Assembly: GCA_964458485.1 (NCBI GenBank)
Contig: CAYWJA010000004.1
Span: 2,231-66,230, forward strand
Direction: 5' to 3'
Length of the DNA: 64,000 nucleotides
From: an uncultured Candidatus Peribacteria bacterium
GTDB lineage: Bacteria > Patescibacteriota > Gracilibacteria > UM-FILTER-43-11
Shown here: positions 1,429 to 63,942 of the stretch, in pieces
Layout of the letters: each line of letters begins with the position of its first letter
How positions within the stretch are numbered: position 1 is the first letter of the stretch
Program-made: the position numbers and the translations under genes
Notes under the pieces: generated by a model
Database searches by the model: none
Seen by the model: only the letters and a program-made list of their open reading frames with translations
What the model was told of the DNA's origin: nothing

Positions 1429-1527
1429 TTTAGGATTATTTTTTTACAAACCTACTCAGACTACGCTATTATAGCACTAAAGCACTACAGGACTAAAGCA
1501 CTACAGGACTAAAGCACTAATAAAAAA

Positions 1528-2202
1528 ATGAAAAAAGAAGAAATACTCCAAATCATAGAAACAAATAAATCAATGCCCTACAATGAGCTACGCACTCATG
1601 CCATGGCCGCCGGTGTTAGCATGGATGAATTTAACAATGCCTGGGATGAGCACATGGAGAACACGAGAAAGACGCCTGCTATGAAAATATGGGAAAAAAT
1701 TTATACAGCGCTTTTGGTAATTTATACCATTATTGGTGCAGATATTGGGTATTTCAATCTTATAATTACTCTACAGAACAAAATTCTTGCAGTAAATTTA
1801 GGTAAACTGGCAATTTTAACAGCCCTGATACTGATTCTTCATATAATATCACATTTTACAGGAAGTAAGGGGTCAATTTTCACAACATCAAAACTATCTG
1901 TTTTCATCGTAATAATGTTTTACTTAACGTTCCTGACAACAAAAATAAATACACCATTCGTACAAATATTTTTGTTATTTGGGGCTGTAATCCTGGGGTT
2001 CATAACTTTCTTTGTCATAATGAAGGTATGCCATATAAACATTTTACGCACCCTGATTCTAATTGTATTGAGCGTGCTCGCTATGGGGATAGTTTTACAG
2101 TTTACAATAGGATTAAAGACATTTAAGAACTATTATGTAGTTGACCCCAATGTTAAAAATTTAAAAATGAAGTCGGCAGTGGAGATTGCTGAATCTGAAT
2201 AG
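1528..2202 (+). CDS. Hypothetical multi-pass membrane protein
   Basis: 224-aa ORF with an ATG start. A soluble ~50-aa N-terminus is followed by about five hydrophobic helices. No family recognised. Confidence 0.6.
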   Translation: MKKEEILQIIETNKSMPYNELRTHAMAAGVSMDEFNNAWDEHMENTRKTPAMKIWEKIYTALLVIYTIIGADIGYFNLIITLQNKILAVNLGKLAILTALILILHIISHFTGSKGSIFTTSKLSVFIVIMFYLTFLTTKINTPFVQIFLLFGAVILGFITFFVIMKVCHINILRTLILIVLSVLAMGIVLQFTIGLKTFKNYYVVDPNVKNLKMKSAVEIAESE

Positions 2203-2311
2203 TAACCAAATAGTTTCCCGCCTTTCGACAAGCTCAAGGCGTTTCCAAATAGTTGCCAAATTGTTTACTATTAATAATTTGGAAACAATCTGGAAACAAT
2301 CTGGAAACAAT
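2203..2311 (+). promoter_or_regulatory. Conserved repeat-built leader, copy A (upstream of cysS)
   Basis: Layout is ccaaatagtttcc / GC hairpin cgcctt-tcgacaagctc-aaggcg / core gtttccaaatagttgccaaattgtttact (2241-2269) / ctggaaacaat x3 ending at the ATG. The same layout occurs at 16566-16688 and 50663-50755. Confidence 0.6.
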
Positions 2312-3733
2312 ATGAATAACATCCAACTATACAACACGGCAACACGACAAAAAATGCCCTTCGAACCGCTAGATCCAGCGGAGGTTAAGTTATATACATG
2401 CGGACCGACGGTTTACAACTATGCGCATATTGGTAATTTGCGAACTTATATTTTTGAAGATTTCCTACGTCGTACTCTTGAGTTTAACGGCTACCAAGTT
2501 AATCATGTAATGAACATTACAGATGTAGGACACTTAACATCCGATGCGGATGAAGGGGAGGATAAAATGCTTAAAGGTGCAAAAAGGGAGAAAAAAACTG
2601 TCTGGGAAATCGCGGAATTCTACACAAAAGCATTTATGAGCGACCTGGTTGCACTCAATCTTTTAGAGCCGCATATTAAATGTAAAGCGACTGACCATAT
2701 TCAGGAAATGATTGATCAGGTGCAACAATTAGAGAAAAACGGACTAACTTACGTTGCTGATGGTAATGTTTATTTTGATACCTCCAAATTTCCGGATTAT
2801 GGAAAACTTGCTCAATTGGAGAAGCAAGATCTGCAGGCTGGCGCACGTATTGAAGTAGATAAGAATAAAAAAAATCCACACGACTTTGTGCTCTGGTTTA
2901 CTAAAAGTAAGTTTGCAGATCAGGAAATGCAATGGGATAGCCCATGGGGCAAAGGTTACCCTGGTTGGCATATCGAGTGCAGTGCAATGTCGACGCGTTA
3001 TCTTGGTAATCAAATCGACATTCACTGTGGCGGCATCGACCACATTCCAGTTCATCATACAAACGAGCTTGCCCAGGCTGAGGGTGCAACAAATATAAAA
3101 CCATGGGTGCTTTATTGGATGCATGGAAATTTTTTGGTAATCAAAGATAAAGAAAAAATGTCTAAATCATCCGATAACTTTTTAAGAATACAAACCCTAA
3201 TCGACAAAGGCTACGATCCATTGGATTACCGATACTTCTGCCTCCAATCTCATTATCGCAAAGAACTGACATTTAGTTGGGAAGGTATGGATGCCGCAAG
3301 GACAGGCTTACGGCGCTTGAGAGAGAAGGTGTGTCGGTTATCACGCGAGCAAAGCAAGCTGGTCACGCGAGCAAAGCGAGCTGGTCACGCGAGCAAAGCG
3401 AGCTGGTCACGCGAAGAATTCGCAGGTGCCATAAACGACGACCTAAACATGCCCGAAGCCCTCGCAACAACCTGGAAGCTTATTGATGATCCAGATGTCG
3501 AGGATGCCGAAAAACTCGCCACAATTAAAGAATTCGACAAAGTGCTTGGCCTAAAATTGGACGAAAAAAAGGATGTTTGTATACCAGAAAGTATCCAGCA
3601 ACTGATAATTGAACGTAACGAAGCGCGCGAAAAAAAAGACTGGGGGAAATCTGACGACCTAAGGAATAAGATTGAGGAACAAGGATTTATAGTAAAAGAC
3701 GGCCCTGACGGGACAAAAGTGTTAAAAAAATGA
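2312..3733 (+). CDS. cysS: Cysteinyl-tRNA synthetase
   Basis: Class-I signatures are present: CGPTVYNYAHIGNLR (HIGH-type) and KMSKS. The track start at 2186 is a TTG that reads through the upstream repeat array. The ATG at 2312 (MNNIQLYNT) matches a canonical CysRS N-terminus. Confidence 0.95.
   Translation: MNNIQLYNTATRQKMPFEPLDPAEVKLYTCGPTVYNYAHIGNLRTYIFEDFLRRTLEFNGYQVNHVMNITDVGHLTSDADEGEDKMLKGAKREKKTVWEIAEFYTKAFMSDLVALNLLEPHIKCKATDHIQEMIDQVQQLEKNGLTYVADGNVYFDTSKFPDYGKLAQLEKQDLQAGARIEVDKNKKNPHDFVLWFTKSKFADQEMQWDSPWGKGYPGWHIECSAMSTRYLGNQIDIHCGGIDHIPVHHTNELAQAEGATNIKPWVLYWMHGNFLVIKDKEKMSKSSDNFLRIQTLIDKGYDPLDYRYFCLQSHYRKELTFSWEGMDAARTGLRRLREKVCRLSREQSKLVTRAKRAGHASKASWSREEFAGAINDDLNMPEALATTWKLIDDPDVEDAEKLATIKEFDKVLGLKLDEKKDVCIPESIQQLIIERNEAREKKDWGKSDDLRNKIEEQGFIVKDGPDGTKVLKK
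3342..3414 (+). repeat. 22-nt tandem repeat x3.3 inside the cysS reading frame
   Basis: The unit cacgcgagcaaagc(a/g)agctggt sits at 3342, 3364 and 3386, with a partial copy at 3408. Three units make 66 nt, so the frame is kept (SREQSKLVTRAKRAGHASKASWSRE). Confidence 0.9.
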
Positions 3734-3738
3734 ATCCC

Positions 3739-3802
3739 AACTCCACAAATTAATATAATTTTGTGGACTCTAACTCCACAAATTAATATAATTTTGTGGA
3801 CT
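3739..3802. repeat. Two tandem copies of a 31-nt hairpin unit between cysS and the AAA ATPase gene
   Basis: The unit aactccacaaattaatataattttgtggact occurs at 3739-3769 and 3772-3802. Each has the 8-bp stem tccacaaa/tttgtgga, and the second is followed by ctttta. It could be a cysS terminator and/or an operator. Confidence 0.8.
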
Positions 3803-3831
3803 TTTATTAAAAAGTAAGATATAATGTAAAC

Positions 3832-4959
3832 ATGATAAAAAGAATTTATGAACCACTGGATAAATTTCTGCAAAAAGGTAAGGCTCTAATAATTTATGGC
3901 CCTCGCCAAGTAGGCAAAACAACACTTTTACAAAAATTTCTTAAAACCACCAACAAAAAATATAAGCTTGATTCCGGAGATAATATAAAAACTCAAAATA
4001 TATTAAGCTCACAGGACTTTTCTCAAATTTTAAATTATGTGGAAGGATACGATCTGATTGCGATAGACGAAGCGCAAAATATACCAAATATTGGCATGGG
4101 GCTAAAAATAATTATAGACAACAAACCAAACATCAGCATAATTGCTACTGGATCATCCTCGTTTGATTTAGCCAATAAAGTAGGTGAACCTTTAACAGGT
4201 CGCAAAAAAACCATTACCCTATATCCAGTCTCACAGATCGAACTACTGGATACACATAATAAACATGAATTACAGGAGCGTTTGGAGGAATTTCTTATTT
4301 TTGGCTCATATCCGGAAGTTGTTACAGCGCGCACCCAAAAACAAAAAATTGAATTATTGAAAGAATTGGTAAATTCTTATTTGCTAAAAGATATTTTGGA
4401 TATGGAAAAAGTAAAAGGGTCTAAAGTTTTACTTGATATGCTAAAGCTATTGGCATTCCAGGTGGGTAATCAGGTTTCTTTGCATGAGTTAGCCACCCAG
4501 CTTTCCATAGATGTAAAAACTGTGGCCAGATATTTGGACTTACTGGAAAAGACCTTTGTAATAAAGCGATTAACCGGTTTCAGTCGCAACCTAAGAAACG
4601 AAATAACCAGTAAGCATAAATATTATTTTTTAGACAATGGCATAAGAAATGCTGTTATATCCCAGTTCAATAATATAGCAGATAGAGCAGATGTGGGAGC
4701 ACTGTTTGAAAACTTTGTTATGATGGAACGTGTGAAAAAACTGGAATACAAAAATGATTATTCTTTAATTTATTTTTGGAGGAATTATGCTGGCAATGAA
4801 ATAGATTTGGTTGAAGAAAAGGACGGCAAATTAAAAGCGTATGAATTCAAATGGAATCCCGGCAAAAAGATTAAAGCCCCCAATGAATGGACAAAGTCTT
4901 ATCCACAAGCTTCTTTTAAAACTGTGACCTCACAAGACTATTTGAAGTTTGTGACATAA
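3832..4959 (+). CDS. AAA+ ATPase of the COG1373/DUF4143 type
   Basis: 375-aa ORF with a Walker A motif (IYGPRQVGKTTLL) and Walker B (LIAIDEAQ). The C-terminal region is typical of DUF4143 proteins. Confidence 0.8.
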   Translation: MIKRIYEPLDKFLQKGKALIIYGPRQVGKTTLLQKFLKTTNKKYKLDSGDNIKTQNILSSQDFSQILNYVEGYDLIAIDEAQNIPNIGMGLKIIIDNKPNISIIATGSSSFDLANKVGEPLTGRKKTITLYPVSQIELLDTHNKHELQERLEEFLIFGSYPEVVTARTQKQKIELLKELVNSYLLKDILDMEKVKGSKVLLDMLKLLAFQVGNQVSLHELATQLSIDVKTVARYLDLLEKTFVIKRLTGFSRNLRNEITSKHKYYFLDNGIRNAVISQFNNIADRADVGALFENFVMMERVKKLEYKNDYSLIYFWRNYAGNEIDLVEEKDGKLKAYEFKWNPGKKIKAPNEWTKSYPQASFKTVTSQDYLKFVT

Positions 4960-5017
4960 AAATTCATAAAATTTGCTGGAGCGTATCTCTGGTGGGCTTC
5001 AACAAATTTTTACCCTA

Positions 5018-5734
5018 CTACTCATCATCTTCCCCCATCCCCAAAAAAGCCTCTTCATCTATTCTTGCAATAGGAAAATGTCCGTACTGTGCGGACACTA
5101 TTTTAAGGGGAAGGTGATTTATTTTACCTTCAACCAACCTTTCTCTAATTTTCATGGGCAATCTCCTAATATAATCATCTTCAAGTTCTGGTGATATAAG
5201 AGCATCTCTGTGCTCGTCGCCGCATCCCGGAAGTTGACTTAATAAAGCAAATTTAAACTTGGGCAGAAAGGTTATCATACCTATTCTCCCATCTGACCGA
5301 TAGCGGAACACTTTAACTGGTACAGTAATTGTATCCCCCAATTTCACAAGCTCCCTTTCTTCTAACGGCGTAATTCTTTCCTGTAGCGCAGCACGCACTT
5401 CTGCATAACATTCAGCAATAGGCTGCCAGAAGCGCTGTTTTTCTTCGTCGCTGAGCTCGCTAGATTTAATCGCCTCCTGGATTTTGACTAAATAATTAGA
5501 TATCAAATAAGCATAATTCATATCTCGTGGTATCCAGCCCAAAATACGATCTACTTCATCAGCAAGATCAATATCTACATCAATTAATTCTAATGCACTT
5601 TCGCGCACTTGTTTAATTGTAGTGTCAATTTTTTCTCCCAAATCTCTAAAATAATCAACACTTAACTTTTTACAGTCTCTTGAATGACCTTTTGTAAGAT
5701 CATCATCTAATGTTGGCAACTCTCTCTCTGACAT
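5018..5734 (-). CDS. Hypothetical acidic protein
   Basis: Open frame with no recognisable domain. The track start at 5803 is a GTG, so I prefer the first ATG (MSERELPTL) at 5734. Confidence 0.5.
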   Translation of the reverse strand: MSERELPTLDDDLTKGHSRDCKKLSVDYFRDLGEKIDTTIKQVRESALELIDVDIDLADEVDRILGWIPRDMNYAYLISNYLVKIQEAIKSSELSDEEKQRFWQPIAECYAEVRAALQERITPLEERELVKLGDTITVPVKVFRYRSDGRIGMITFLPKFKFALLSQLPGCGDEHRDALISPELEDDYIRRLPMKIRERLVEGKINHLPLKIVSAQYGHFPIARIDEEAFLGMGEDDE

Positions 5735-5855
5735 AAGCAAATTGGTTAATGTTAGGTTGTATACTGTATAAATAATTAGACAACCTGTCAACCCAAAACT
5801 CACTTTCTCATCAACCTAAATTTTCGTGTTTTTTAAGGGTATGGTATATTTTATT

Positions 5856-5947
5856 TAGGATGTAGGATGTAGGCCTTTAGGATGTAGGAATCTATGAAAT
5901 TCCGCAGTCCATAACCTACAAGCCTACAACCTACAAGCCTACAACCC
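5856..5947. repeat. Opposed word arrays (aggatgt)n ... (cctacaa/cctacaagc)n
   Basis: The left arm taggatgtaggatgtaggcctttaggatgtagga (5856-5889) faces the right arm cctacaagcctacaacctacaagcctacaaccc (5915-5947). The tgtagg and cctaca words are complementary. The same family occurs at 61958-62034. Confidence 0.8.
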
Positions 5948-5956
5948 TAAAAAATT

Positions 5957-6898
5957 ATGACAAAATATAGCATCTTCTCCGGCTCCTCCCACCCGGAGCT
6001 TGCGAAGGAAATCGCAAAAAAACTTAAAAAACCTCTCGGCAAAGTAAAACTGACGACATTTTCGTGCGGGGAAAAATATGTAGCTTATGAAGAAACAATG
6101 CGCGGCAGAGAAGTATTTATCATCCAAACATGTAGGGATGGATTGGTGAATGATGATTTTATGGAACTCTTCCTGATGATAGATGCAGCACGGCTTTCTT
6201 TCGCAACAAAAATTCATGTAATACTCCCTCACTTCGGCTATGCCAGACAAGACAAAGTACATGTACCACGGGAGCCGATTTCTGCAAAACTGATGGCTGA
6301 TCTTCTGGTTCAGGCTGGCGCTGATCATGTGATTACATTTGCACTTCATTCAGACCAAAACCAGGCATTTTTTGATGTTCCTGTAGATAATATTGATGTA
6401 CATAGGTTGTTTTCTGAATACTTTAAGAAAAAAAAGCTAAAGGATGTTGTTGTTGTCTCCCCAGATGCAGGTGGTGCAAAAAAAGCCAAGGCATTTGCAG
6501 ATGATATTGGTGCCCCAATAGCCATCCTCCACAAGGCAAGACCAAAACACAATGTAGCGAAAACAACCCATGTGGTTGGTGATGTAGATGGCAAAACCTG
6601 TATTATTTATGATGATATGATCGACACTGCAGGCAGTACAGCCGCAGCACACGATGCCTTAATTAAACATGGTGCAAAAAAAGATATTTACCTGGCTGCA
6701 ACCCATCCAATATTTTCCGGACCGGCAGCCAAAAGATTTAGAAAGGCTGGGTTTAAAGAGGTGGTTGTTACCAACTCAATGCCGATTCCAAAAGAGAAGA
6801 AATTTAAAGGCCTTAAGCAAATCTCCATCGCACCTTTAATTGCAGACATTATTGGAAGTGTGACGCATCAGAAGTCTGTTAGCTCTCTATTTTATTAA
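5957..6898 (+). CDS. prs: Ribose-phosphate pyrophosphokinase
   Basis: 313 aa. Full-length resemblance to PrsA, including the PRPP-binding loop (VVVSPDAGGAKKAKAFAD, IIYDDMIDTAGS). Confidence 0.95.
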   Translation: MTKYSIFSGSSHPELAKEIAKKLKKPLGKVKLTTFSCGEKYVAYEETMRGREVFIIQTCRDGLVNDDFMELFLMIDAARLSFATKIHVILPHFGYARQDKVHVPREPISAKLMADLLVQAGADHVITFALHSDQNQAFFDVPVDNIDVHRLFSEYFKKKKLKDVVVVSPDAGGAKKAKAFADDIGAPIAILHKARPKHNVAKTTHVVGDVDGKTCIIYDDMIDTAGSTAAAHDALIKHGAKKDIYLAATHPIFSGPAAKRFRKAGFKEVVVTNSMPIPKEKKFKGLKQISIAPLIADIIGSVTHQKSVSSLFY

Positions 6899-6906
6899 TC
6901 ATTTTT

Positions 6907-6935
6907 CTTGAGACTCGCACTTGAGACTTGAGACT
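6907..6935. repeat. Word array cttgagact x3 upstream of gap
   Basis: cttgagact starts at 6907, 6920 and 6927. The same word occurs at 12514-12543, 24621-24652 (reverse complement) and 55181-55232. Confidence 0.85.
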
Positions 6936-6958
6936 ATTAAATTTTAATTTAATTAATT

Positions 6959-7963
6959 ATGAAAGTAGCAATAAATGGCTTCGGCCGCATTGGCCGACAA
7001 ATTATGCATAGAATTATGCAAAAAAACAGCGACCTTGAGGTTGTCGCAATCAATGATCTTTCCGATAATAAAATGTTAGCACTCCTGTTTGGACATGACT
7101 CAACATTCGGTAAATATCCAGGCACTGTGGAATTAAAGGGTGAAGATGAAATTGTTATTGATGGAAAGGCTATCAAAATTTACGCTGAACCGGATCCAGA
7201 AAAACTTCCATGGGGCGAACTTGGTGTAGACACTATTTTTGAATGCACCGGAAGATTCCGTACGCACGAAGATGCCAGCAAGCACGTTACAGCTGGTGCA
7301 AAAAGGGTAATTCTCTCTGCTCCTGCAAAGGGCGATAAAGGTGCTGATGGCACCTTTGTAATGGGCGTGAATGAAGGTGATTTCGACCCAGAGAATCACA
7401 AAATCATTTCAAATGCCAGCTGCACAACAAACTGCCTCGCTCCTGTGGCAAAAGCAATTAACGATGCCTTTGGAATAAAGAGGGGAATCATGACAACTAT
7501 TCACGCTGTAACAACAAGTCAAAAAATTCTAGATATGGCATCTAAGGATGCAAGACGTGCAAGAAGCTGCATGCAAAATATGATCCCAACAACAACCGGT
7601 GCTGCAAAAGCTGTTTCCTTAGTTATCCCGGAGCTTAAAGGGAAACTTACCGGAATGGCTGTACGTGTACCAACTCCAACAGTATCACTTGTTGATTTAA
7701 CTGTAGAATTTGAAAAAGATGTCACCACCGATGAAATCCATGATGTTCTGAAAAAACGTGCACAGGAAATTCCAGAAATTATGCAGGTGGAAGAACGCCC
7801 ACTTGTTTCAAAAGACTTCCAAATGGATTCTCATTCCGCATCTGTTGATGCAATGAGTACCATGGTGATGGGCGGAAACTTAGTAAAAATACTAGTATGG
7901 TACGACAATGAATGGGGGTATTCTTGTAGGATGGTTGATTTGGCGGAACACATATCTAAATAA
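6959..7963 (+). CDS. gap: Glyceraldehyde-3-phosphate dehydrogenase, type I (copy 1)
   Basis: 334 aa with NGFGRIGR and the catalytic SNASCTTNCLAP motif. Confidence 0.95.
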   Translation: MKVAINGFGRIGRQIMHRIMQKNSDLEVVAINDLSDNKMLALLFGHDSTFGKYPGTVELKGEDEIVIDGKAIKIYAEPDPEKLPWGELGVDTIFECTGRFRTHEDASKHVTAGAKRVILSAPAKGDKGADGTFVMGVNEGDFDPENHKIISNASCTTNCLAPVAKAINDAFGIKRGIMTTIHAVTTSQKILDMASKDARRARSCMQNMIPTTTGAAKAVSLVIPELKGKLTGMAVRVPTPTVSLVDLTVEFEKDVTTDEIHDVLKKRAQEIPEIMQVEERPLVSKDFQMDSHSASVDAMSTMVMGGNLVKILVWYDNEWGYSCRMVDLAEHISK

Positions 7964-7966
7964 CAA

Positions 7967-8024
7967 CCTAATAGTGACCTGCTACGCGTGACCAGCTCAC
8001 TACGTTCGCGTGACCTAATAGTGA
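7967..8024. repeat. GC-rich insert flanked by the direct repeat cctaatagtga
   Basis: cctaatagtga occurs at 7967-7977 and 8014-8024, bracketing the GC-rich stretch between 7978 and 8013. Positions 7991-8012 match the reverse complement of the cysS internal 22-mer at 18/22. Confidence 0.75.
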
Positions 8025-8101
8025 TTATAATTATGCAATTAAATCACAATAGGTCACGTGAGCTTGAGCTTGTCGAAAGCGAACGGGTAACAATTGGAAT
8101 C

Positions 8102-9496
8102 ATGCAATTAACAAGCCACGGAGCCGCCCTAGAGGTAACCGGCTCCCAACATTTATTACAAGTAAACGGTAAAAAAATCCTACTTGATTGTGGATTATTC
8201 CAGGGTCGCAGAAAGGAAGCTGCGGAAAAAAACAGTATTTTTGGGTTTGATCCAGCAGAAATTGACGCTGTTGTTCTATCACACGCCCATATTGATCATT
8301 CAGGCAATATACCAACGCTCGTAAAAAAAGGATTTAAAGGTGTTATATATTGTACCGAAGCAACGGAAAATTTATGCGGAGCTTTGCTTTTAGACAGTGC
8401 ATATATACAGGAAAGTGATGCAGAATATATGAAGCGCAAGCATGCGGATACGGCTCTTGAGCCAATTGAACCACTTTATACGCAAGAAGATGCAAAATTG
8501 GCTTTATTGTCGTTCAAGGGTCAGGATTATAAAAAACAATTTGAAGTATGTGAAGGTGTGAAAGTAACTTTTAAAGAAGCCGGCCACATCCTTGGCGCTG
8601 CAATAGTAGTTTTAGATATTGATGATAGGGAAGATGGTAAGCATAAACGCCTTGTATTCACTGGTGATTTGGGCAGATACCATCTGCCAATAATCAGAGA
8701 TCCTGAGACAGTTGATGAGGCGGATTATTTAATATGCGAAAGTACTTATGGGAACAGAATGCACGACCCCGCAGAAGAAGGTATGCCTGCACTTTCCAGA
8801 GTAATAAACAGGACAATAAAACGTGGTGGCAAAATTATTATTCCTGCATTTGCGCTAGAGCGTAGTCAAGAATTACTTTATAGCCTACACGTTCTTATAC
8901 ACCATAAGAAAATACCAGATAATCTGCCAATATTTTTAGACAGCCCTCTTGCAAATGCTGTAACTAATATATTTAAACAGCATATCGAGCTCTACGATGA
9001 AGAAATTAAGGCCGAATTCAAAAGCCATAATCCATTTACAATGCGACAGTTAAAGCAAACTGCTTCTGCAGAAGAATCAAAAGAGCTTAATTACTTTATT
9101 GGGCCTTGTATAATCATTTCTGCGAGTGGAATGTGCGAAGCCGGTCGTATTCGTCATCATCTAAAAAACAACATTGAGGACCCGAAAAATACGATTGTTG
9201 TTGTTGGATATATGGCTGAAAATACACTCGGGCGCAGAATTGTAAATAAGGAGCCGCTGATAAAAATATTCGATAAAATGTATATGCTCAAATCAGAGGT
9301 TGTAGTGTTAGAAGCCTTTAGCGCCCATGCTGATATGAATGATTTGGACAACTATGTAAAATCGATTAAGGGGCTTAAAAAAGTACTGCTTGTACACGGT
9401 GAAGAAGATCAATCCAGCGCATTCGCAGAGAGAATTAAAGAATATTCCGATGCTGATGTTACAGTAATGATGCCACAGGTTACTGTTGATCTATAG
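8102..9496 (+). CDS. MBL-fold beta-CASP RNA-metabolising nuclease
   Basis: The HxHxDH motif (SHAHIDHSG) and overall layout fit bacterial CPSF/RNase J-like beta-CASP proteins. The track start at 7988 is a GTG reading through repeats, and the ATG at 8102 (MQLTSHGAA) fits better. Confidence 0.85.
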   Translation: MQLTSHGAALEVTGSQHLLQVNGKKILLDCGLFQGRRKEAAEKNSIFGFDPAEIDAVVLSHAHIDHSGNIPTLVKKGFKGVIYCTEATENLCGALLLDSAYIQESDAEYMKRKHADTALEPIEPLYTQEDAKLALLSFKGQDYKKQFEVCEGVKVTFKEAGHILGAAIVVLDIDDREDGKHKRLVFTGDLGRYHLPIIRDPETVDEADYLICESTYGNRMHDPAEEGMPALSRVINRTIKRGGKIIIPAFALERSQELLYSLHVLIHHKKIPDNLPIFLDSPLANAVTNIFKQHIELYDEEIKAEFKSHNPFTMRQLKQTASAEESKELNYFIGPCIIISASGMCEAGRIRHHLKNNIEDPKNTIVVVGYMAENTLGRRIVNKEPLIKIFDKMYMLKSEVVVLEAFSAHADMNDLDNYVKSIKGLKKVLLVHGEEDQSSAFAERIKEYSDADVTVMMPQVTVDL

Positions 9497-9569
9497 CAAT
9501 TTACTAGCTGAAGAATTCTTGCTCTGGACAAAATAATTGTTATCAGCTAAATTAACTACGCTTATTTGC

Positions 9570-9662
9570 GGAGAGATACCCAAGTGGCTGAAGGGGCGGC
9601 TTTGCTAAAGCTGTAGGGGGATTTTTATCCCCGCGAGGGTTCGAATCCCTCTCTCTCCGCCA
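9570..9662 (+). tRNA. tRNA-Ser (anticodon GCT, reads AGY), CCA encoded
   Basis: Hand-folded. Acceptor ggagaga/tctctcc, D arm ccc-aagtggctgaa-ggg, anticodon stem cggct/agctg with loop ttGCTaa. There is a long variable arm (tagggggatttttatccccgc) and T arm gaggg-ttcgaat-ccctc, then discriminator g and CCA. Confidence 0.9.
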
Positions 9663-9864
9663 CAATTAATTAAGGGTTATATATCTTATTTACCGTAGAT
9701 GAGAACCCACCGATACAATTTTAATATAAATTTAATACTGGGTGTTCGCCGCGAAAAAGAAGCAAAGTCCCGACAAAGTCGGGACGTAAGCGACTATTTG
9801 AGCGCTCGACCTCGGACGGTATGCCTGAGCGTTAGCGAATGGTATACCGGAGAATGTAAGAATA

Positions 9865-9881
9865 TCCCTCTCTCTCCGCCA
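9865..9881 (+). repeat. Duplicate of the tRNA-Ser 3' end (att-like direct repeat 2)
   Basis: tccctctctctccgcca at 9865-9881 is identical (17/17) to 9646-9662 inside the tRNA. Confidence 0.9.
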
Positions 9882-9895
9882 TTTTAAACATAATT

Positions 9896-10234
9896 ATGAC
9901 AAAAAAAATCATCCTCATAATAATTCTCTTCATCCTACTACTTCATGCAGTAACCTTTTTTATAGATAAATCACGCATAAATAACAATAAAAAACCCATA
10001 TTCATTATTTCGACTACATTTTTAAAAGATGGTGGTACAACTATCAGTCACGGAATGGGGTATAAGATAATTTATTGGCATTTCCTTACCTCTAAAAAAA
10101 TTGGCGATAAAAAAATAGACGGATATAATGTCGGATATGAAATATTCCATATAACGAACTCAAAATACTTTAAAGATTTTAGAAGCCTTGAAAGGTCAAC
10201 AGACGCAAAATTGGAATTCTTGCCCATAAAATAG
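9896..10234 (+). CDS. Small membrane-anchored hypothetical protein
   Basis: 112 aa with an ATG start and an N-terminal hydrophobic helix (IILIIILFILLLHAVTFF). It is bracketed by the repeats at 9873-9886 and 10243-10256. Confidence 0.5.
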   Translation: MTKKIILIIILFILLLHAVTFFIDKSRINNNKKPIFIISTTFLKDGGTTISHGMGYKIIYWHFLTSKKIGDKKIDGYNVGYEIFHITNSKYFKDFRSLERSTDAKLEFLPIK

Positions 10235-10242
10235 AAATATTT

Positions 10243-10256
10243 TCTCCGCCATTTTA
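10243..10256 (+). repeat. Third partial copy of the tRNA-Ser 3' end plus flank
   Basis: tctccgccatttta at 10243-10256 is identical to 9873-9886. Confidence 0.8.
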
Positions 10257-10258
10257 TA

Positions 10259-10837
10259 CTAGCGACTTCTCGACCAAAAACGACTCTTGCTCACTACACT
10301 TTTCCAGGTAAGCTTATTTGCCTTAAAACCGAATCTCCTTAAAATCTTACGCACTTCAACCTCCTGATGTGAAGTGAGTAATTTCTTTTTATGAAAAGGA
10401 AAATAACTAGAGCGGCTAATCAACCCTCTTGAAGTATCAGAATGGACCTTCGGAATGTCAAAAATAGTCTTATTTAAATAGAAGGGTAACAAATCTCCTA
10501 TCACAGGTTCTCTGTCTATTCCTGCGGCATTCTTAATTAATTCCACCGTTAATCTACCAAATGTTCTTATATCAATTAATGGATAATTACATGCATCAGG
10601 ATTTGCCTTAATCGCCTCTACTAATTGGACTCTTGCAAGGTCTTTGGCGCTCATAACAGCCTCAGCTTTGGACGTAGTGTGAGTCTTTATAATACCATCT
10701 GCCTTAGCACGCACAGTCTTCATGTTAGCAATATCATTGTCATCCACAGGCCCAGTCTCCAGCTCAGACAAAAGAGCATGTATTCTATCAATAATACTTA
10801 AAGTTTCTGTGGGTTTATTTGTATCAGAATCTGTCAT
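10259..10837 (-). CDS. Hypothetical protein, tandem paralogue 1
   Basis: 192 aa with an ATG start. It shares blocks with the next ORF: LVEAIKANPDACNYPLIDIRTFG, IGDLLPFY and EVEVRKILRRFGF. Confidence 0.6.
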   Translation of the reverse strand: MTDSDTNKPTETLSIIDRIHALLSELETGPVDDNDIANMKTVRAKADGIIKTHTTSKAEAVMSAKDLARVQLVEAIKANPDACNYPLIDIRTFGRLTVELIKNAAGIDREPVIGDLLPFYLNKTIFDIPKVHSDTSRGLISRSSYFPFHKKKLLTSHQEVEVRKILRRFGFKANKLTWKSVVSKSRFWSRSR

Positions 10838-12531: not shown

Positions 12532-12757
12532 GCACTTGAGACTAAATAATATTGACAATCACAATTTTTACATGATATACAGATATTCTCAATGTGAATT
12601 ATGGAAATTAAATGAACTATTTTGTATTTTAATGAATATTTTGTATGAAACATCGCAGTATTGAACGCAAACGTCTCCGATCATCCGGACACGATTATTC
12701 ATCGGACGGATTACACGCCATCACAATCACTGAAACATGTGAAGGAATTTTTAGGTA

Positions 12758-14580: not shown

Positions 14581-14613
14581 AGCACTTTGAGCACTTGAGC
14601 ACTTGAGCACCTG
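14581..14613. repeat. Word array gcacttgag x3 just upstream of rnj
   Basis: agcactttgagcacttgagcacttgagcacctg ends 8 nt before the ATG at 14622. Confidence 0.85.
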
Positions 14614-55180: not shown

Positions 55181-55232
55181 GCTTGAGACTTGAGACCCGC
55201 GCCCTTGGCGGGGCAGGCATGCACTTGAGACT
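55181..55232. repeat. cttgagact word array interrupted by a GC-rich insert
   Basis: gcttgagacttgagac, then ccgcgcccttggcggggcaggcatg, then cacttgagact. Confidence 0.85.
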
Positions 55233-59273: not shown

Positions 59274-59284
59274 AATATAATTTC

Positions 59285-59310
59285 GCATTTCGCATTTCTG
59301 ATTTCGCATT
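59285..59310. repeat. Left arm of a perfect 26-nt inverted repeat in the ilvD-ilvB spacer
   Basis: gcatttcgcatttctgatttcgcatt; its exact reverse complement lies at 59383-59408. Confidence 0.9.
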
Positions 59311-59382
59311 GTCATGTACCATTTTGCAATTAGCAATTACTAATTAATTAGTTAAATGCCAAATGAGTGAATGCCAATTGTG

Positions 59383-59408
59383 AATGCGAAATCAGAAATG
59401 CGAAATGC
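59383..59408. repeat. Right arm of the perfect 26-nt inverted repeat
   Basis: aatgcgaaatcagaaatgcgaaatgc. It overlaps the first base of the ilvD stop codon, and 22 nt recur at 12794-12815. Confidence 0.9.
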
Positions 59409-61030
59409 TAAGTTAAAAAGTATTCCTTCCTATATCTCTCCAACGCAGGTGTAAGCTTGCGCTTAGGTTTTTTCATGGTTTTTAATCTCCTTTTAATTTC
59501 TCTGTCACTCAATTTTACATTAAGTTTACGTTTTGGGATATCGATTTCAATTATATCACCATTTTTAATAGCCCCAATTGGCCCACCATTGTAAGCCTCT
59601 GGCTCAATATGGCCAATGCAGGCACCGCGGGTTCCTCCACTAAATCGCCCATCCGTTAGTAGCGCTACTTTAAGCCCGGCTCCAGCTATCACAGCTGTTG
59701 GCGTCAGCATTTCCGGCATTCCCGGTGCTCCTGCTGCGCCCATAAAATTGAGCACAACCACATCACCATTTTTAATTTTCTTTTTTTCAACAGCCTTAAG
59801 TACAGCATCTTCCGATGAAAATACTTTTGCAGACCCGGTAAATTTGAGCATATCCGGCTCAACTGCAGTCTGTTTTATAACAGAACTAGTCGCAATATTA
59901 CCTTTTAATATGGCAATTCCTCCCTCTTTATAATACGGCTTGCTGAGAGGGCGGATCACATTGTCATTTTTTACCTTACTCTTATTCGCAATTTCTTTAA
60001 TATCTTTACCATTTATCGTTGGGGATTTTTTAATAAACTTTTTCAATCGATTTAATACCGCAGAAATACCTCCGGCTTTATATAAATCTTCCATATCATG
60101 CACGCCTGCCGGCCTTAAATGGCAGATATTTGGAGTGTTTTTAGACACTTTGTCAAAAGTAGTCAGAGTTAGTTTAATACCAGCTTCTTTTGCAATTGCA
60201 GGCAGATGCAATGCTACATTTGTTGATCCGCCAATTGCCATATCTACCCTCACTGCATTCTCGAATGCTTGTTTTGTCATAATATCTCGAGCCTTGATAT
60301 CTTTTTTTACAAGCTGAACAATTCTTTTGCCGGTTTCGTAAGCTTGCTTCTTCTTTTTCGGGTCTAGCGCAAGTGTCGCAGCACATCCTGTAACAGACAT
60401 ACCTAAAACTTCTGTCATACATGCCATAGAATTTGCCGTAAATAATCCAGAGCAGCTACCGGCACTTGGGCAGGATGCACATTCAATTTTTAAGCCTTCT
60501 TTTTTAGTCATTTGCCCAGCCTTTATCTTTCCAACAGCTTCAAATGCACCAGATACAAGGTCGATTTTTTTGCCATGTAACTTTCCGGATTTCATTGGTC
60601 CACCTGTTATAATTGCAGCTGGTAAATTTACCCTTGCAGCACCCATTAGCATACCTGGTGTAATTTTATCGCAATTTGTAACACCAACCCATCCATCTAA
60701 CGAATGAGATAGCGTCATTATTTCAATATTATCCGCAATATGATCACGCGATGGAAGCGAAAGACGCATTTCCACATACATCGCAATACCATCACACACA
60801 GCAGGCACCCCCCATTCTAACGGCACACCACCAGCATCACGTATGCCTTTTTTTACCCATTTTGTAAGTACATTTAAGTGGACATGACCGGGTACAATAT
60901 CTGTAAACGCATTAGCAACCCCAATGAATGGTTTTTTAAAATCACTATCTTTCATCCCACCTGCACGCAGGAGTGATCGGTGGGGGATAGTTTCTATACC
61001 TTTTTTGAGTTTGTTTGATGGTAATTTCAT
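59408..61030 (-). CDS. ilvD: Dihydroxy-acid dehydratase
   Basis: 540 aa with an IlvD/Edd family layout ([18 protein letters not shown]). Confidence 0.95.
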
Positions 61031-61050
61031 ATTTATTCACTATTTGGTTA

Positions 61051-61953
61051 CTATTTGGCTAAAAAAGTTAACCACTTAAAATATTCAGGATTTTTACCAC
61101 TAACTATATCCATAAATTCCTCTTTAAGCTGTTTAGTTATTGGGCCAATGTTGGTTTTTAATTTTTTATTATCAATTTGCCCAACCGGCGATACTTCTGC
61201 GGCAGTTCCTGTTAAAAAACATTCATCAGCCTCATGAATATCATCCAGTTTCATCTTTTTTTCTTTCACTTTATATCCTAAATTTTTAGCCAATTCCATA
61301 ATAGATTCACGAGTGATTCCAGCCAAAATTGTACCTAGTTCAGGGGTATAAATAACACCATCCTTAACAATAAAAAGATTTTCCGCGGAGCCTTCGGCAA
61401 CATATCCTTTGTAGTCCAACATAAGAGCTTCTCCATAGCCATCTTTTACAGCATCTTTAACAGCAAGCATTGCATTAACATAATGGCCGGAAATTTTTGC
61501 ATCTGCATAAGTAGATTTTGGATGAATTCTTACAAAAGGGGAAACCTTCATTTTTATTGCTTCATCACCCAAGTACGACCCCCATGGCCAGCATGCTATT
61601 GCAACATCAATAGGTAAATCAATTGGATTAACTCGCAAGGGTCCGTATCCATAAAAAGCAATTGGGCGAATATAACCGGATTTAACCTTATTAACTTTTA
61701 CAGTTTTAATTATTGCTTTTTCAAGCTCATCCTGCGTGTATGGAATTTTCATATCCAAGCATTCCATAGAGTAAACCCACCTTTCAACATGTCTTTTTAA
61801 TTGAAAAATCGCAGGGCCTTTTTCTGTTTTATAAAATCTTACACCCTCAAACGCACCGGTGCCATAATGAAGAGCATGACTCATTACATGGATTTTTGCA
61901 TCGGCCCATTTTACGAGCTTGCCATTTAGCCAGATGTGTTTAGTTTTATTCAT
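61051..61953 (-). CDS. ilvE: Branched-chain amino-acid aminotransferase (fold type IV)
   Basis: 300 aa. The class-IV aminotransferase layout and ilv context support the call. Confidence 0.9.
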   Translation of the reverse strand: MNKTKHIWLNGKLVKWADAKIHVMSHALHYGTGAFEGVRFYKTEKGPAIFQLKRHVERWVYSMECLDMKIPYTQDELEKAIIKTVKVNKVKSGYIRPIAFYGYGPLRVNPIDLPIDVAIACWPWGSYLGDEAIKMKVSPFVRIHPKSTYADAKISGHYVNAMLAVKDAVKDGYGEALMLDYKGYVAEGSAENLFIVKDGVIYTPELGTILAGITRESIMELAKNLGYKVKEKKMKLDDIHEADECFLTGTAAEVSPVGQIDNKKLKTNIGPITKQLKEEFMDIVSGKNPEYFKWLTFLAK

Positions 61954-61957
61954 AATT

Positions 61958-62034
61958 AGGATGTAGGATTGTAGGATGTAGGATTGTAGGAATTTATAGT
62001 AGGCCTACATCCTACATGCCTACTACCTACAACC
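61958..62034. repeat. Opposed word arrays (aggatgt/aggattgt)n ... (cctaca)n
   Basis: The left arm aggatgtaggattgtaggatgtaggattgtagga faces the right arm aggcctacatcctacatgcctactacctacaacc. It belongs to the same family as 5856-5947. Confidence 0.85.
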
Positions 62035-63861
62035 TTAGTTTTTATTATACAAAATATTGTACCCTCGCTCAAATGCCTCAATAGAAGCCGCAATTACATC
62101 GGGAGAGGTGGCAGTTGCAATAACTTTATTGTCCCTTTCATCTTTTAAGCTCATAGAAACCTCTACAGTTGCATCTGTACCACGTTGATCGATTTTTACA
62201 TCATAATCAGTAAGCCAGTATTTCATCAATTTTTCCCTTACGATGGTTTTCCGAACAGCTTTCATAATTGCATCAACAGGCCCTACTCCGGCTGCACTGG
62301 TTTCACATATTCCATTGTCTTTTATTTTTACCTTTACGCTGGCACAAGCTTGATCATTTTTAGATGTACTAACACTAAAATCCATCACTTTTATAAGTTT
62401 TTTAGAATCAGGCACAGTTTTTAAAATATCTTCAATAACATGCTGAAGATCCGACTTTACCATTTCCTTACCTTTCTTAAAGAATTGTCCAACTTCTTTA
62501 TATAAAGCATTCGCATATCTTGCAGATAAATTCAATTTGAACTTCTTTTTAACTACATCAGATAGCTGCCTTTTTGTTGGCTGCTTATTCCATAAAATTT
62601 CAATTTTGTCTTTTTCCAAAGTAGATTGAATGTTATAAAGCTTCATCCTTAAATATCTATCCACCTCATCAACATTCGGTTCAATAGAAGGAGGGGATGG
62701 CAGGGTTTTGAGTACGGTTAGCGGATCCTTTAGGCCATTTCCCGTAGCTATGCAAACCACAACATCATCTTTTTTTATTTTTTTAGATTTCACAAGTTTT
62801 TTTAGCCCGGCAAGTGCAAGAGCCGCAGAAGGTTCAACAAAAATAGATTCTTTCTTGGCCAATTCTTTTTCAGCCTCCAAAGTTTCTCCGTCACTCACTT
62901 CGATAGCCATACCTTTAGTTTTATAAATTGCATTAAGCACCTTTAATCCATCAAGCGGATAACTTACAGCAACAGCAGAAGATAGGGTTTTAGGTTTTTC
63001 AATAGATTTTAATTTGCGGGTTTTCTTTTTAAAAGATTCCACTACAACATTAGCCCCCTTTGGTTGTACGCCCACAATTTTAGGCATTTTATCTATAAAA
63101 CCAAGTTCATAAAATTCTCTTATTCCCTTATATATTGCGGTCAAATTAGTACCACATCCAATAGGAGCAATAACAAAATCCGGTGCCTTCCAAAAAAGCT
63201 GTTCCACAATTTCATAACCCTGAGATTTTTGACCTTCGCCCCTAAAAACATAGTCTCCAGCCAAATAAAATCCATGTTTTTTGGCGATTTTTTCCGCAAG
63301 CTTCGCACATTCACTATAAGTAGCACGAACCTGAATTACGCGCGCACCATAAGCAAGGGTCTGAGAAAGTTTACCAAGTGGTGTCCCTTCCGGGACTATA
63401 ATGTAGGCTGGTATTTCAGCGCGTGATGAATAAGCTGCAATAGAGGCTGCCATATTACCTGTTGATGCAACCACTATTGCCTTTGCGCCCATTTCCATAG
63501 CCTTAGTTACCTCTACCATACTTCCTCTGTCTTTAAATCCTCCAGTTGGATTAGATGTTTCATCTTTAAAATATAATTTTTTTAAACCAAGCTCTTTAGC
63601 TATTTTTTTACTCTTCTTTAATGCGGTACCTCCTTCATCTAAGCTAACGAGCTTGTTTAAATTAGCTATTGGGTAAAAATCCAAATATTTTGTAGCCGCA
63701 ATTGGAGCATTTTTTAAAGCATAAAAATTAAGATGACTTTTTATATAGCCATAGTCATATTCAGCATCCAGCGGGCCTTCACACTTAAGGCAATGGCTGG
63801 ATGTCTTTTTTTCATCCCAATATTTCCCGCAGGAAACGCATTTTAATTTGTAGAATTTCAT
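62035..63861 (-). CDS. Threonine-synthase-like PLP enzyme with N-terminal zinc ribbon, fused to a C-terminal LeuA/CimA-type regulatory (LeuA_dimer) domain
   Basis: CVSCG...CLKCEG ribbon and the PLP-lysine motif NPTGGFKDRG (ThrC-like, fold type II). The last ~130 aa match the allosteric domain of isopropylmalate/citramalate synthases: AAGVGPVDAIMKAV...LTDYDVKIDQRGTDATVEVSMSL...SPDVIAASIEAFERGYN. Confidence 0.85.
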   Translation of the reverse strand: MKFYKLKCVSCGKYWDEKKTSSHCLKCEGPLDAEYDYGYIKSHLNFYALKNAPIAATKYLDFYPIANLNKLVSLDEGGTALKKSKKIAKELGLKKLYFKDETSNPTGGFKDRGSMVEVTKAMEMGAKAIVVASTGNMAASIAAYSSRAEIPAYIIVPEGTPLGKLSQTLAYGARVIQVRATYSECAKLAEKIAKKHGFYLAGDYVFRGEGQKSQGYEIVEQLFWKAPDFVIAPIGCGTNLTAIYKGIREFYELGFIDKMPKIVGVQPKGANVVVESFKKKTRKLKSIEKPKTLSSAVAVSYPLDGLKVLNAIYKTKGMAIEVSDGETLEAEKELAKKESIFVEPSAALALAGLKKLVKSKKIKKDDVVVCIATGNGLKDPLTVLKTLPSPPSIEPNVDEVDRYLRMKLYNIQSTLEKDKIEILWNKQPTKRQLSDVVKKKFKLNLSARYANALYKEVGQFFKKGKEMVKSDLQHVIEDILKTVPDSKKLIKVMDFSVSTSKNDQACASVKVKIKDNGICETSAAGVGPVDAIMKAVRKTIVREKLMKYWLTDYDVKIDQRGTDATVEVSMSLKDERDNKVIATATSPDVIAASIEAFERGYNILYNKN

Positions 63862-63880
63862 GAGTAGTTTTTAATTTATA

Positions 63881-63942
63881 GTTTTTAATTTTTAATTATA
63901 CTACTAGATTCGCTGATTAAATAACAATTAAAAATTAAAAAA
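63881..63942. repeat. Hairpin built from tttttaattt words upstream of the ThrC-like gene
   Basis: In gtttttaatttttaatt (63881-63897), 16 of 17 nt are complementary to aattaaaaattaaaaaa (63926-63942). The word family matches the 31404/31828 inverted repeat. Confidence 0.8.

Follow-up and report, generated by a model that had tools for sequence, protein, structure and literature searches.

Intergenic short tandem repeat arrays of the LSSR/STRR type in a 64-kb stretch of a Peregrinibacteria-related genome

Short tandem repeats of the heptamer class, that is, the long simple sequence repeats (LSSRs), the short tandemly repeated repetitive sequences (STRRs), and the TAACTGA repeats, have been known for decades from a few lineages, without an established function. 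LSSRs, with units of 5–11 nt, include heptamers in an excess that is specific to certain lineages (Mrazek et al. 2007, summarised in PMC4679880 and PMC4692102). The heptamer repeats of Xanthomonas and Nostoc (GGGAATC/GGGGAYT) are G-rich and capable of forming G-quadruplexes; in Xanthomonas their length differs between close relatives and inverted pairs can occur (PMC4692102). Between hupS and hupL lies an STRR heptamer hairpin that is proposed to serve transcript stability or translational coupling (PMC2670836). Direct repeats of TAACTGA, in 2–6 copies and mostly intergenic, are found in marine Beggiatoaceae, in cyanobacteria, and in a few Bacteroidetes (MacGregor 2015, PMC4679880), where they stand a few nucleotides upstream of start codons in forward orientation, Shine-Dalgarno (SD) motifs being rare (PMC4679880). 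The subject here is a 64-kb stretch of bacterial DNA (called the window hereafter, which always means the whole stretch analysed), about half of the spacers of which contain tandem arrays of short words. The first-pass annotation of this DNA did not recognise the arrays as a described class of element; by their behaviour, however, they belong to the known intergenic short tandem repeats of the LSSR/STRR type, which are such a class (PMC4679880, PMC4692102, PMC2670836). A literature search found no published report of such arrays in the candidate phyla radiation (CPR) or in Peregrinibacteria.

The arrays stand among housekeeping genes: cysS, prs, two gap genes, ribD, mfd, dnaN, fba, and the ilv operon, as well as genes for RNase J, a second beta-CASP nuclease, PBP1A, and PPi-PFK. 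Homologs of the prs product with 72–78% identity are labelled Candidatus Peregrinibacteria or Patescibacteria, and the organism is therefore a CPR bacterium related to Peregrinibacteria. An SD-like motif was found at none of the 54 gene starts of the window, as the first-pass annotation had said of the genome; the leaders are A/T-rich and depleted in G, with A at position −3 in 36 of the 54, and the promoters are, by eye, of the type TTGACA-N16–17-TAAAAT. A Bacteroidota origin, which the missing SD motifs might suggest, was rejected in view of this promoter type and of the labels of the prs homologs.

Arrays in the intergenic spacers

Arrays were recorded with Tandem Repeats Finder (TRF) and, by a stricter definition, as exact arrays (period 6–16, at least 2.5 copies). 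In the real spacers TRF finds 24 arrays (score ≥40, period 6–24); 30 dinucleotide shuffles average 1.07 and never exceed 3, which makes the excess approximately 23-fold. For exact arrays the intergenic total is 275 nt out of 7,262 and the coding total 115 nt out of 56,738, whereas intergenic sequence simulated with a first-order Markov model yields 1.2 nt on average, an excess of about 200-fold. A clear array is present in 21 of the 41 spacers of at least 40 nt, or in about 27 if weak ones judged by eye are included, so that the arrays are real but the earlier statement that almost every spacer is built from them went too far; three convergent spacers reach 40 nt, and all of them lack a clear array. 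The units are 7–22 nt long, with periods mostly of 7–8, 11–12, and 16 nt, and they fall into more than ten mutually unrelated word families within the 64 kb. The recurrence of the same words at distant loci is borne out by 166 GC-containing 9-mers found in at least two spacers, compared to 86 ± 12 in shuffles, and words of the type CTTGAGAC are present at 5 loci. It is also correct that the arrays often touch the start codon: 15 of the 27 non-coding arrays end within 10 nt of one. These start-proximal arrays are the most perfect (100% matches by TRF at 1476–1519, 16646–16691, 21377–21421, and 50717–50755), which suggests a younger age or a higher activity than in the other arrays.

In assembly from short reads, tandem repeats may be collapsed or expanded, and some arrays are AT-only sequence of low complexity (e.g., 63865–63941 and 44987–45075); that the arrays as a whole are due to chance or to assembly is nevertheless extremely improbable. 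The excess over dinucleotide shuffles and Markov simulations, a comparison that the first-pass annotation had itself proposed, speaks against chance. Contigs 99.9–100% identical to the window, from at least seven independent samples or assemblies, carry identical arrays; such contigs span positions 1–10,261, 32,894–45,185, and 60,516–64,000, and every array therein is reproduced base for base, which excludes an assembly artefact. Moreover, the habit recurs in four related species (see below). Known RNA families are absent from the spacers, Rfam at gathering thresholds having returned only a tRNA-Ser in the window, and a generic scan for sigma-70 promoters and terminators gave counts not above those of shuffles.

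Most of the arrays are not isolated but arranged in one of three layouts. In the first, two opposed arrays enclose a loop (5856–5949, 42817–42899, 43942–44011, 59280–59408, and 61954–62035); in the second, direct arrays flank a small GC stem-loop (12757–12820, 38071–38130, and 55181–55230). The third is a composite of both and is represented by three homologous copies of about 100 nt upstream of cysS and of pilD-like and dacA-like genes, with the consensus (GTTnCCAAATA)n, GC stem-loop, (GTTnCCAAATA)2–3, GTTTACT, (cTGGwAACAAT)3–4, ATG. A metagenome scan with the core of this composite, GTTTCCAAATAGTTRCCAA, in a collection without the source of the window, gave 32 matches, mostly due to chance and in unrelated contigs; it also led to the unrelated palindromes of 11-nt words in the Ga0056 contigs described below. 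The arrays and related features of the window are the following:

1473–1520, plus strand: 16-nt word ACTAAAGCACTACAGG, 2.8 copies (TRF 1476–1519); whole 5′ leader of the gene at 1528–2202, starting right after a conserved −10 box, GCTATTATA.
2203–2311, plus strand: composite element copy 1, stop-to-start spacer upstream of cysS (z = −4.77), in the order (GTTnCCAAATA)n, GC stem-loop, (GTTnCCAAATA)2, loop, (CTGGAAACAAT)3; the last array (TRF 2276–2311, 11-mer, 3.3 copies) abuts the cysS ATG at 2312.
3341–3414, plus strand: 22-nt unit TCACGCGAGCAAAGCGAGCTGG, 3.4 copies, in frame inside cysS (66 nt = 22 aa), encoding SREQSKLVTRAKRAGHASKASWSREE; the linker at this place is hypervariable among relatives.
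5856–5949, plus strand: opposed (TAGGATG)n, loop, (CCTACAAG)n upstream of prs (z = −4.11); the 3′ arm stops 7 nt short of the prs ATG.
6907–6935, plus strand: CTTGAGACT, three copies broken by CGCA, in the prs–gap spacer.
7964–8032, plus strand: direct repeat CCTAATAGTGA on both sides of a stem-loop, gap to beta-CASP spacer; a relative of the composite family.
12514–12543, minus strand: loose CTTGAGG/CTTGAGA cluster at or near the ribD start, without a TRF call.
12757–12820, plus strand: (AAATGCS)n, small hairpin TCCCGATGAAATCGGGA, (GAAATGC)n upstream of a yifB-like gene.
14581–14614, plus strand: AGCACTTG, 4.1 copies, ending 7 nt before the RNase J ATG.
16560–16691, plus strand: composite element copy 2 upstream of the pilD-like gene (z = −5.07), with a final (ATGGAAACAAT)4 in which the start region of the pilD-like gene is included (TRF 16646–16691, 11-mer, 4.2 copies).
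21374–21453, minus strand: TCACCAATCGGA in sense, 3.8 copies, at the PBP1A ATG (TRF 21377–21421, 12-mer, 3 nt from the ATG); its stop-proximal partner is complementary in part.
24620–24651, minus strand: (CTTRAGA)n in sense, 7 nt upstream of the mfd ATG.
33043–33087, plus strand: 24-nt repeat CCCAATGGACGATCCAATTGGGAA, 1.9 copies (TRF), at the start of an fn3 gene.
38071–38130, minus strand: (TAATTCG)2, GC-rich stem-loop, (TAATTCG)2 (z = −3.91), right behind a stop codon, with a U-run next; resembles a terminator.
40321–40351, minus strand: (TGTTAAA), 4.4 copies (TRF).
42817–42899, minus strand: opposed 12-mers (TRF 42823–42858 opposed to 42861–42899) over the whole gap2–pfp spacer (z = −3.49); the hairpin spans the spacer (distances −1 and −2), and stop and start codons are therefore at the stem base.
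43942–44011, minus strand: opposed 8-mers TCGTCCTT and AGCACGAT in the fba–gap2 spacer (z = −5.84).
44987–45075, minus strand: AT-rich opposed heptamer arrays AATTTTA and TTATAAT.
47085–47343, plus strand: inverted (TCAGATC)2.9 and (AATCTGA)2.4 bounding a 259-nt spacer (−80.6 kcal/mol).
49553–49588, plus strand: 16-mer AATTGAGAAATCGAGT, 2.2 copies (TRF), ending 7 nt before an ATG.
50661–50755, plus strand: composite element copy 3, with a compensatory word variant, ending in (CTGGTAACAAT)3.5, which abuts the dacA-like ATG (TRF 50717–50755, 11-mer, 3.5 copies).
55181–55230, minus strand: (CTTGAGA)2, GC stem-loop, CTTGAGA right after a stop codon.
59280–59408, minus strand: opposed (ATTTCGC)4.4 and (AATGCGA)3.7; the orthologous junction in the distant relative L005 is an overlap without spacer.
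61954–62035, minus strand: opposed (GTAGGAT) and (CCTACAT) filling the spacer upstream of the ilvE-like gene (z = −6.22); polymorphic by a 16-nt two-unit indel and one single-nucleotide polymorphism (SNP).
63865–63941, minus strand: AT-rich opposed arrays TTTTTAA and TAAAAAT (TRF).

TRF recovered nearly all of the arrays listed by the first-pass annotation, at the same coordinates or a few bases off, and they are indeed non-coding and neither CRISPR arrays nor insertion sequences. A few need correction. The array at 14581–14614 exists, but its unit is 8 nt and not 9; the three copies of the cttgagact word at 6907–6935 are real, but their interruption leaves a TRF score of only 37; the array placed at 55181–55232 is present at 55182–55196, but is weak (score 30); and the cluster at 12514–12543 contains the ribD ATG only if translation starts at 12531 and not at 12495.

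Some further details of these spacers were noted. A 33-nt unit is repeated 2.6 times at 3739–3825, each copy being a hairpin (CTCCACAAA...TTTGTGGAC), and downstream of the last copy come a T-run and then, 6 nt ahead of the ATG of the gene at 3832, a −10-like box. The interior of the spacer at 47085–47343 holds repeated hairpins (GTCATCCTG...) and a CCCGAT...ATCGGG stem like that at 12775–12795, and a word resembling the reverse complement of the cysS array at 3341–3414 is found at 50664 within a composite spacer element.

That many array pairs can form long imperfect hairpins, as had been proposed, is confirmed by RNA folding: compared to shuffles, array spacers reach z-scores of −3.5 to −6.2, and for 46 co-directional spacers, taken from the window and its relatives together, z has a median of −2.2 and lies below −2 in 25. 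The hairpins had been thought to lie over the translation start. Their anchor, however, is the upstream stop codon: no more than 6 nt separate it from the beginning of the dominant hairpin in 21 of the 30 co-directional spacers that bear arrays. In 13 of the 30 the hairpin covers at least 84% of the spacer and abuts the ATG, which puts stop and start codons at the base of one stem; of the 16 hairpins that span only part of the spacer, 14 are stop-proximal (binomial p = 0.004), and what follows them is an AT-rich leader of 20–70 nt, often with a −10-like box. A rule of composition accompanies this geometry: wherever opposed arrays abut a start (seven spacers), the arm next to the start is, read in sense, A/C-rich and poor in G (A109 C67 T50 G31 in sum), while the stop-proximal arm is G/T-rich.

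One way to read these hairpins is that they occlude the start codon in the sense RNA, such that downstream translation needs them to be melted by the upstream ribosome or by a factor acting in trans. It is true that 13 of 30 co-directional spacers have a stem whose base comes to a few nucleotides from the ATG or takes it in, and that a ribosome terminating at the stop codon, with which the 5′ arm begins, would be in a position to open the stem. Yet the two strands fold equally well (z = −4.50 in sense and −4.51 in antisense); G·U pairs are fewer in sense (51 compared to 100) because the sense composition is A/C-rich, and a positive sign of selection on the structure of the sense RNA is therefore lacking. 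An apparent advantage of antisense folding (p = 0.0016) was ruled out, per-strand shuffles showing it to be a purely compositional effect. As, in addition, the hairpin ends 20–70 nt before the start in 16 of the 30 spacers and the genes are of the housekeeping type, with no obvious need for such control, occlusion is quite improbable, and the control of initiation by RNA structure envisaged in the first-pass annotation finds no specific support.

Relatives and the turnover of words

Arrays are not confined to the window. Its closer relatives (contigs L045–47, L048/49, L050, and L051/52), which are syntenic with it, are equally array-rich: the density of the window and of relatives whose prs is 79–89% identical amounts to 4.3–9.0 per 10 kb, compared to 1.3–1.4 in L004 and L005, two more distant relatives in which the identity of the ilvE-like protein is about 68%. 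L005 is syntenic over the ilv operon, where its spacers are 0–31 nt long and free of arrays, compared to 71–81 nt of arrays in the window; thus, sister lineages have spacers of near-zero length in the very places which the window clade has filled with arrays. The array habit, seen in four related species, is lineage-specific.

Within the clade the words do not persist. Orthologous spacers compare as follows:

prs–gap spacer: CTTGAGACT in the window; GTGCTTCA opposed to GAAGCACT in L045; TTCATAA in L048; AACGAnAT opposed to ATCGTTAC in L051.
gap to beta-CASP spacer: array, GC stem-loop, array in the window, without an opposed arm; array, GC stem-loop, array, loop, opposed array, ATG in L046, with species-specific words; the L046 layout in L048 and L051, each with its own words.

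Likewise, the leader of the 224-aa gene at 1528–2202 has a conserved −10 box that is followed by arrays of different words in the window, L048, and L051, while in L045 it measures 17 nt and has no repeat. Turnover of words in orthologous leaders is thus complete between species with prs about 89% identical. The complementarity of the arms tracks the change of words: RNAalifold, applied to four homologous composite copies, shows two pairs changed on both sides, and a third compensatory change is seen by eye in the dacA copy, where GTTTCC to GTTACC is matched by GGAAAC to GGTAAC. Vocabulary is nevertheless shared across species at non-orthologous loci, e.g., CGCACTTGAGAC and AATGCGAAAT.

This turnover bears on the idea that the arrays are multivalent binding sites in mRNA leaders, which replace the SD motif or regulate initiation by way of S1, cold-shock, or CsrA-like binders; MacGregor proposed such a hypothesis for the TAACTGA repeats, which show the same positional pattern (PMC4679880). 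In the window, the proximity of 15 of 27 non-coding arrays to a start, the absence of SD motifs from all 54 genes together with the frequent A at −3, the A/C-rich, G-poor start-proximal arms (seven of seven), and the perfection of the start-proximal arrays would all suit it. Protein-binding arrays, as also suggested in the first-pass annotation, agree poorly with a set of more than ten unrelated words in 64 kb and with the complete turnover at orthologous leaders, one relative having no array there at all; about half of the arrays are, moreover, stop-proximal 5′ arms or far from any start. Diversity and turnover make a sequence-specific binder implausible, and only a preference at the level of composition could apply; binding sites are therefore clearly an unlikely explanation.

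Array-rich contigs also occur outside the clade; they are unrelated, have a high GC content, and show some of the same heptamers and the same array-hairpin-array layout. Five IMG/VR contigs (L056, L067, L071, L079, and L081; GC 0.59–0.63) have up to 14 intergenic heptamer arrays per 10 kb and share the words CTTGAGA and GAAATGT; in L056 the order is (GAAATGT)3, TCCGCCGGAGGCGGA, (CTTGAGA)n, that is, array, GC hairpin, array. A further set (L008, L009, L014, L016, L023, L027, L032, and L034, from Ga0056114-129 and Ga0209680) consists of contigs poor in open reading frames, with a GC content of about 0.43, the palindromes of which are made of the 11-nt words CTAGTTGGAAA, CTAGTTGCCAA, and CCCGGGTTGCCAA with outer arms AAAGGCCGCAACCCACTAGGCGAA...; they belong to a different organism with a similar construction of words and hairpins.

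Origin, possible role, and gene context

Near-clonal assemblies differ in very few places, and the only two indels seen between them are both whole-unit changes within arrays, a kind of variation for which the first-pass annotation had proposed a comparison of strains. One is a 16-nt, two-unit insertion at 61961, in the start-proximal arm, present in L002 and L003. The other is a single 14-nt unit of the array (CTTCGATTTTCGTG)3–4 inside ribD, by which L048 (16690–16750) differs from L049 (11700–11800): with three copies the gene is frameshifted and split in L048, with four it is intact in L049, the two contigs being otherwise 99.8% identical. That both indels comprise whole units points to replication slippage, and the presence of unit arrays or indels inside ribD and cysS implies that the process is active genome-wide, with selection confining the survivors to spacers. 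The coding exceptions either total a multiple of three (22 nt × 3 in cysS) or break the gene (14 nt in ribD of L048).

The explanation toward which we lean, if only slightly, is that the arrays are generated by slippage and filtered by selection into spacers that form hairpins. A high rate of tandem duplication and slippage of 7–22-nt units would seed arrays across the clade, and template switching between arms may join slippage as a generator; selection would clear the arrays from coding sequence and keep those in a spacer if it folds on itself, either as opposed arrays or as arrays around a GC stem-loop, with the hairpin beginning at the stop codon, and if the start-side arm is A/C-rich and G-poor like the other leaders of the genome. 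As an outcome, intercistronic and 5′-leader DNA would come to consist almost entirely of arrays, the words of which turn over fast while the architecture persists. The anchoring at the stop codon, the G-poor start arm, and the array-free convergent spacers indicate that transcription and translation constrain which arrays persist. The hairpins may act on the transcript as 3′-end or intercistronic stem-loops that stabilise the upstream message and hold stop and start codons adjacent, a role modelled on proposals for repetitive extragenic palindromic (REP) and STRR elements; the start-proximal arm would then be simply a leader without SD motif.

Several points weigh against this explanation. The palindromy could be purely a product at the DNA level, of slippage and template switching, and folding in sense is no stronger than in antisense. 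A T-rich tail (at least six T in the next 10 nt) follows only 4 of the 16 part-span hairpins (e.g., 38010–38135 and 3734–3831), so that most are not canonical intrinsic terminators. The sample of polymorphism is tiny (two indels and two array SNPs), and each functional step assigned to the hairpins is one that we infer. Finally, composites of about 100 nt at three non-orthologous loci and a vocabulary that species share at non-orthologous loci mean that some dispersal or gene conversion must operate in addition to slippage.

The last point leads to mobile DNA. According to this alternative the spacers harbour miniature elements of the REP/REPIN type, of the MITE type, or of the type of the small dispersed repeats (SDRs) of cyanobacteria, perhaps moved by a Y1/HUH enzyme like the REP-associated tyrosine transposases (RAYTs), and the arrays are their targets or footprints. 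To the three homologous composites at non-orthologous loci of the window, a fourth with altered words can be added from elsewhere in L046; of the CTTGAGA-type modules, found at 5 loci, some enclose a GC stem-loop and others do not, such that 55181–55230 looks "filled" and 6907–6935 and 12514–12543 look "empty"; vocabulary is common to L050 at non-orthologous loci; the unrelated high-GC contigs show the same heptamers and layout; and a RAYT-like Y1_Tnp gene adjoins ribD in L048 (17228–17884) and L049 (12283–12939), its IS200-like product of 218 aa scoring 29.6 bits at a Pfam cut-off of 23. Against it stand the absence of a transposase from the window, the lack of terminal inverted repeats or target-site duplications at the composites, which extend exactly from stop codon to ATG, the occurrence of more than ten unrelated words where REP families have a single conserved palindrome, and the nature of the observed indels, which are whole-unit slippage and not insertion or excision of an element. 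Mobility as the main cause is rather unlikely, although not negligibly so; as a contributing process, the footprint of a mobile hairpin, which the first-pass annotation had also considered, may play a part.

A bolder idea gives the hairpins a task in translation. The stem might bring stop and start codons together and let the ribosome reinitiate, shunt-like, across a spacer of 70–130 nt; or it might be cleaved, e.g., by RNase III, RNase J, or the beta-CASP nucleases encoded in the window, to free mRNAs with a 5′ end at or near the AUG, for which the tRNA punctuation in mitochondria is an analogue. Array hairpins would then not be passengers but a means of translating internal cistrons without SD motifs, and slippage of the arms a fast tuning knob for the efficiency of coupling. 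We regard this idea as speculative and improbable; if the hairpins did couple or punctuate cistrons in SD-less CPR operons, interest in them would be high, and otherwise it is moderate. Even if the repeats are merely tolerated by-products of slippage, they reveal a mutational regime peculiar to this lineage, by which coding sequence is affected as well (cysS and ribD).

CPR bacteria are a group known for small genomes, and it is unexpected to find among them a member with spacers several-fold larger than those of its relatives and with initiation that does without an SD motif. For Peregrinibacteria, a loss of bS21 has been reported (PMC9297842). In these spacers geometry and composition are constrained while sequence is free, which makes hypotheses of stability, coupling, and tuning testable in principle.

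Other observations concern the genes of the window and its relatives. Besides the beta-CASP ribonuclease of the aCPSF1/Cas14-like type (8033–9496), there is an RNase J (14622–16559) with an N-terminal extension of about 90 aa, and a homolog of the 23S rRNA intervening-sequence protein is encoded at 31414–31821; all three would be relevant if spacer hairpins were processed. A −10-like box lies 6–7 nt upstream of the ATGs at 3832 and 12849, which makes these candidates for leaderless mRNAs. CysS is 554–595 aa long in relatives (L048 6282–8069; L051 2532–4196) compared to 473 aa in the window, the extra length being two large insertions with CxxC pairs that resemble zinc ribbons. The RAYT-like protein of L048 and L049 has the HUH motif HIHLL and an internal SPGGDI repeat of its own. 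The 3′ end of the tRNA-Ser(GCU) gene, CCCTCTCTCTCCGCCA, recurs about 210 nt downstream (approximately 9871–9888) and partly near 10240 (region 9570–9895), repeats which resemble an att-site scar; in L048 (12188–12514) and L051 (14920–15237) the tRNA adjoins a hairpin bordered by GGCGGAG. Upstream of dnaN, an AT-rich spacer of 693 nt (25793–26485) with the DnaA-box-like repeats TGTGGATAA and TGTGTATAA has the look of oriC, against which speak the lack of a GC skew inversion and a neighbouring gene that encodes an SLH-sortase protein and not dnaA. The strand bias of the genes switches near 17.97 kb.

Comparison with described repeat classes

A CRISPR array consists of 23–47-nt repeats split by unique spacers of similar length; the units of the window are contiguous, 7–22 nt long, and without spacers. 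REPs are conserved palindromes of 20–40 nt that are thought to stabilise upstream mRNA. What the window has in common with REPs, bacterial interspersed mosaic elements, and REPINs are extragenic palindromes in operon spacers just after stop codons, in many dispersed copies, but one conserved palindrome of 20–40 nt is absent from the 64 kb and the flanking contigs. Neither a RAYT/Y1 gene nor a remnant of the RAYT-like gene of L048 was found in the window. From MITEs the composites differ by having no terminal inverted repeats or target-site duplications, and there are no presence/absence variants among near-clonal assemblies. Intrinsic terminators have a GC-rich stem-loop with a U-tract right behind it; in the window, a T tail follows the four part-span hairpins mentioned above, full-span hairpins abut the ATG, and terminator-like sites are not enriched overall. 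Contingency loci are phase-variable repeats in the open reading frame or promoter of surface or virulence genes, with an expression that copy number switches. Copy number of the 14-nt unit switches the frame of ribD between L048 and L049; the genes that flank arrays are of the housekeeping type, however, and most arrays are invariant across samples. Nostoc SDRs are reportedly small hairpin units inserted within tandem heptamer repeats, a possible parallel to the array-hairpin-array layout at 12757–12820, 38071–38130, and 55181–55230; the GC stem-loops of the window share no obvious consensus.

The TAACTGA repeats agree with the arrays in position, near the start in genomes where SD motifs are rare (15 of 27 arrays, no SD motif in 54 genes in the window). 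Tandem TAACTGA is absent from the 64 kb, which contains three single copies. A single word dominates in the TAACTGA genomes, in contrast to the more than ten families of the window; in the BOGUAY genome the repeats are essentially all direct (one indirect repeat is reported), whereas the arrays of the window are mostly paired into hairpins.

Closest are the LSSRs and STRRs. Like LSSRs, the arrays consist of head-to-tail units above chance, though some units exceed the limit of 11 nt; units that are not multiples of three prefer non-coding sequence (275 of 7,262 compared to 115 of 56,738 nt); abundance is sporadic and specific to the lineage (4.3–9.0 compared to 1.3–1.4 per 10 kb); and copy number varies by whole units between close strains, as judged from the two indels of 16 and 14 nt. 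As far as the published summaries describe them, LSSRs and the repeats of Xanthomonas and Nostoc are likewise sporadic, lineage-specific intergenic repeats of 5–11 nt, for which slippage is proposed and whose locus is kept while length and sequence vary; near starts, the arrays of the window differ from the Xanthomonas and Nostoc repeats by being G-poor on the sense strand. Their density, with about half of the spacers of a compact CPR genome occupied, looks high.

With the STRRs the arrays share tandem intergenic units of the 7-nt class at many loci, hairpins in intercistronic or promoter regions, and restriction to a lineage. The host is different, a CPR relative of Peregrinibacteria and not a heterocystous cyanobacterium, and so are the units, which measure 7–22 nt and include many 11–12-nt words; the words also do not look like the STRR consensus heptamers. 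In behaviour the arrays are thus STRR-like, but by sequence and host they are not members of that class. No description of anchoring at the stop codon, turnover of words at orthologous loci, or a G-poor start arm was found for STRRs, and all three are shown here. New, therefore, are the host, the density in a compact CPR genome, the words of 11–16 nt and the dispersed composite element, the stop-codon anchoring, and the separation of a conserved architecture from a free sequence; to the heptamer-class repeats known so far, this clade adds a compact comparative system.

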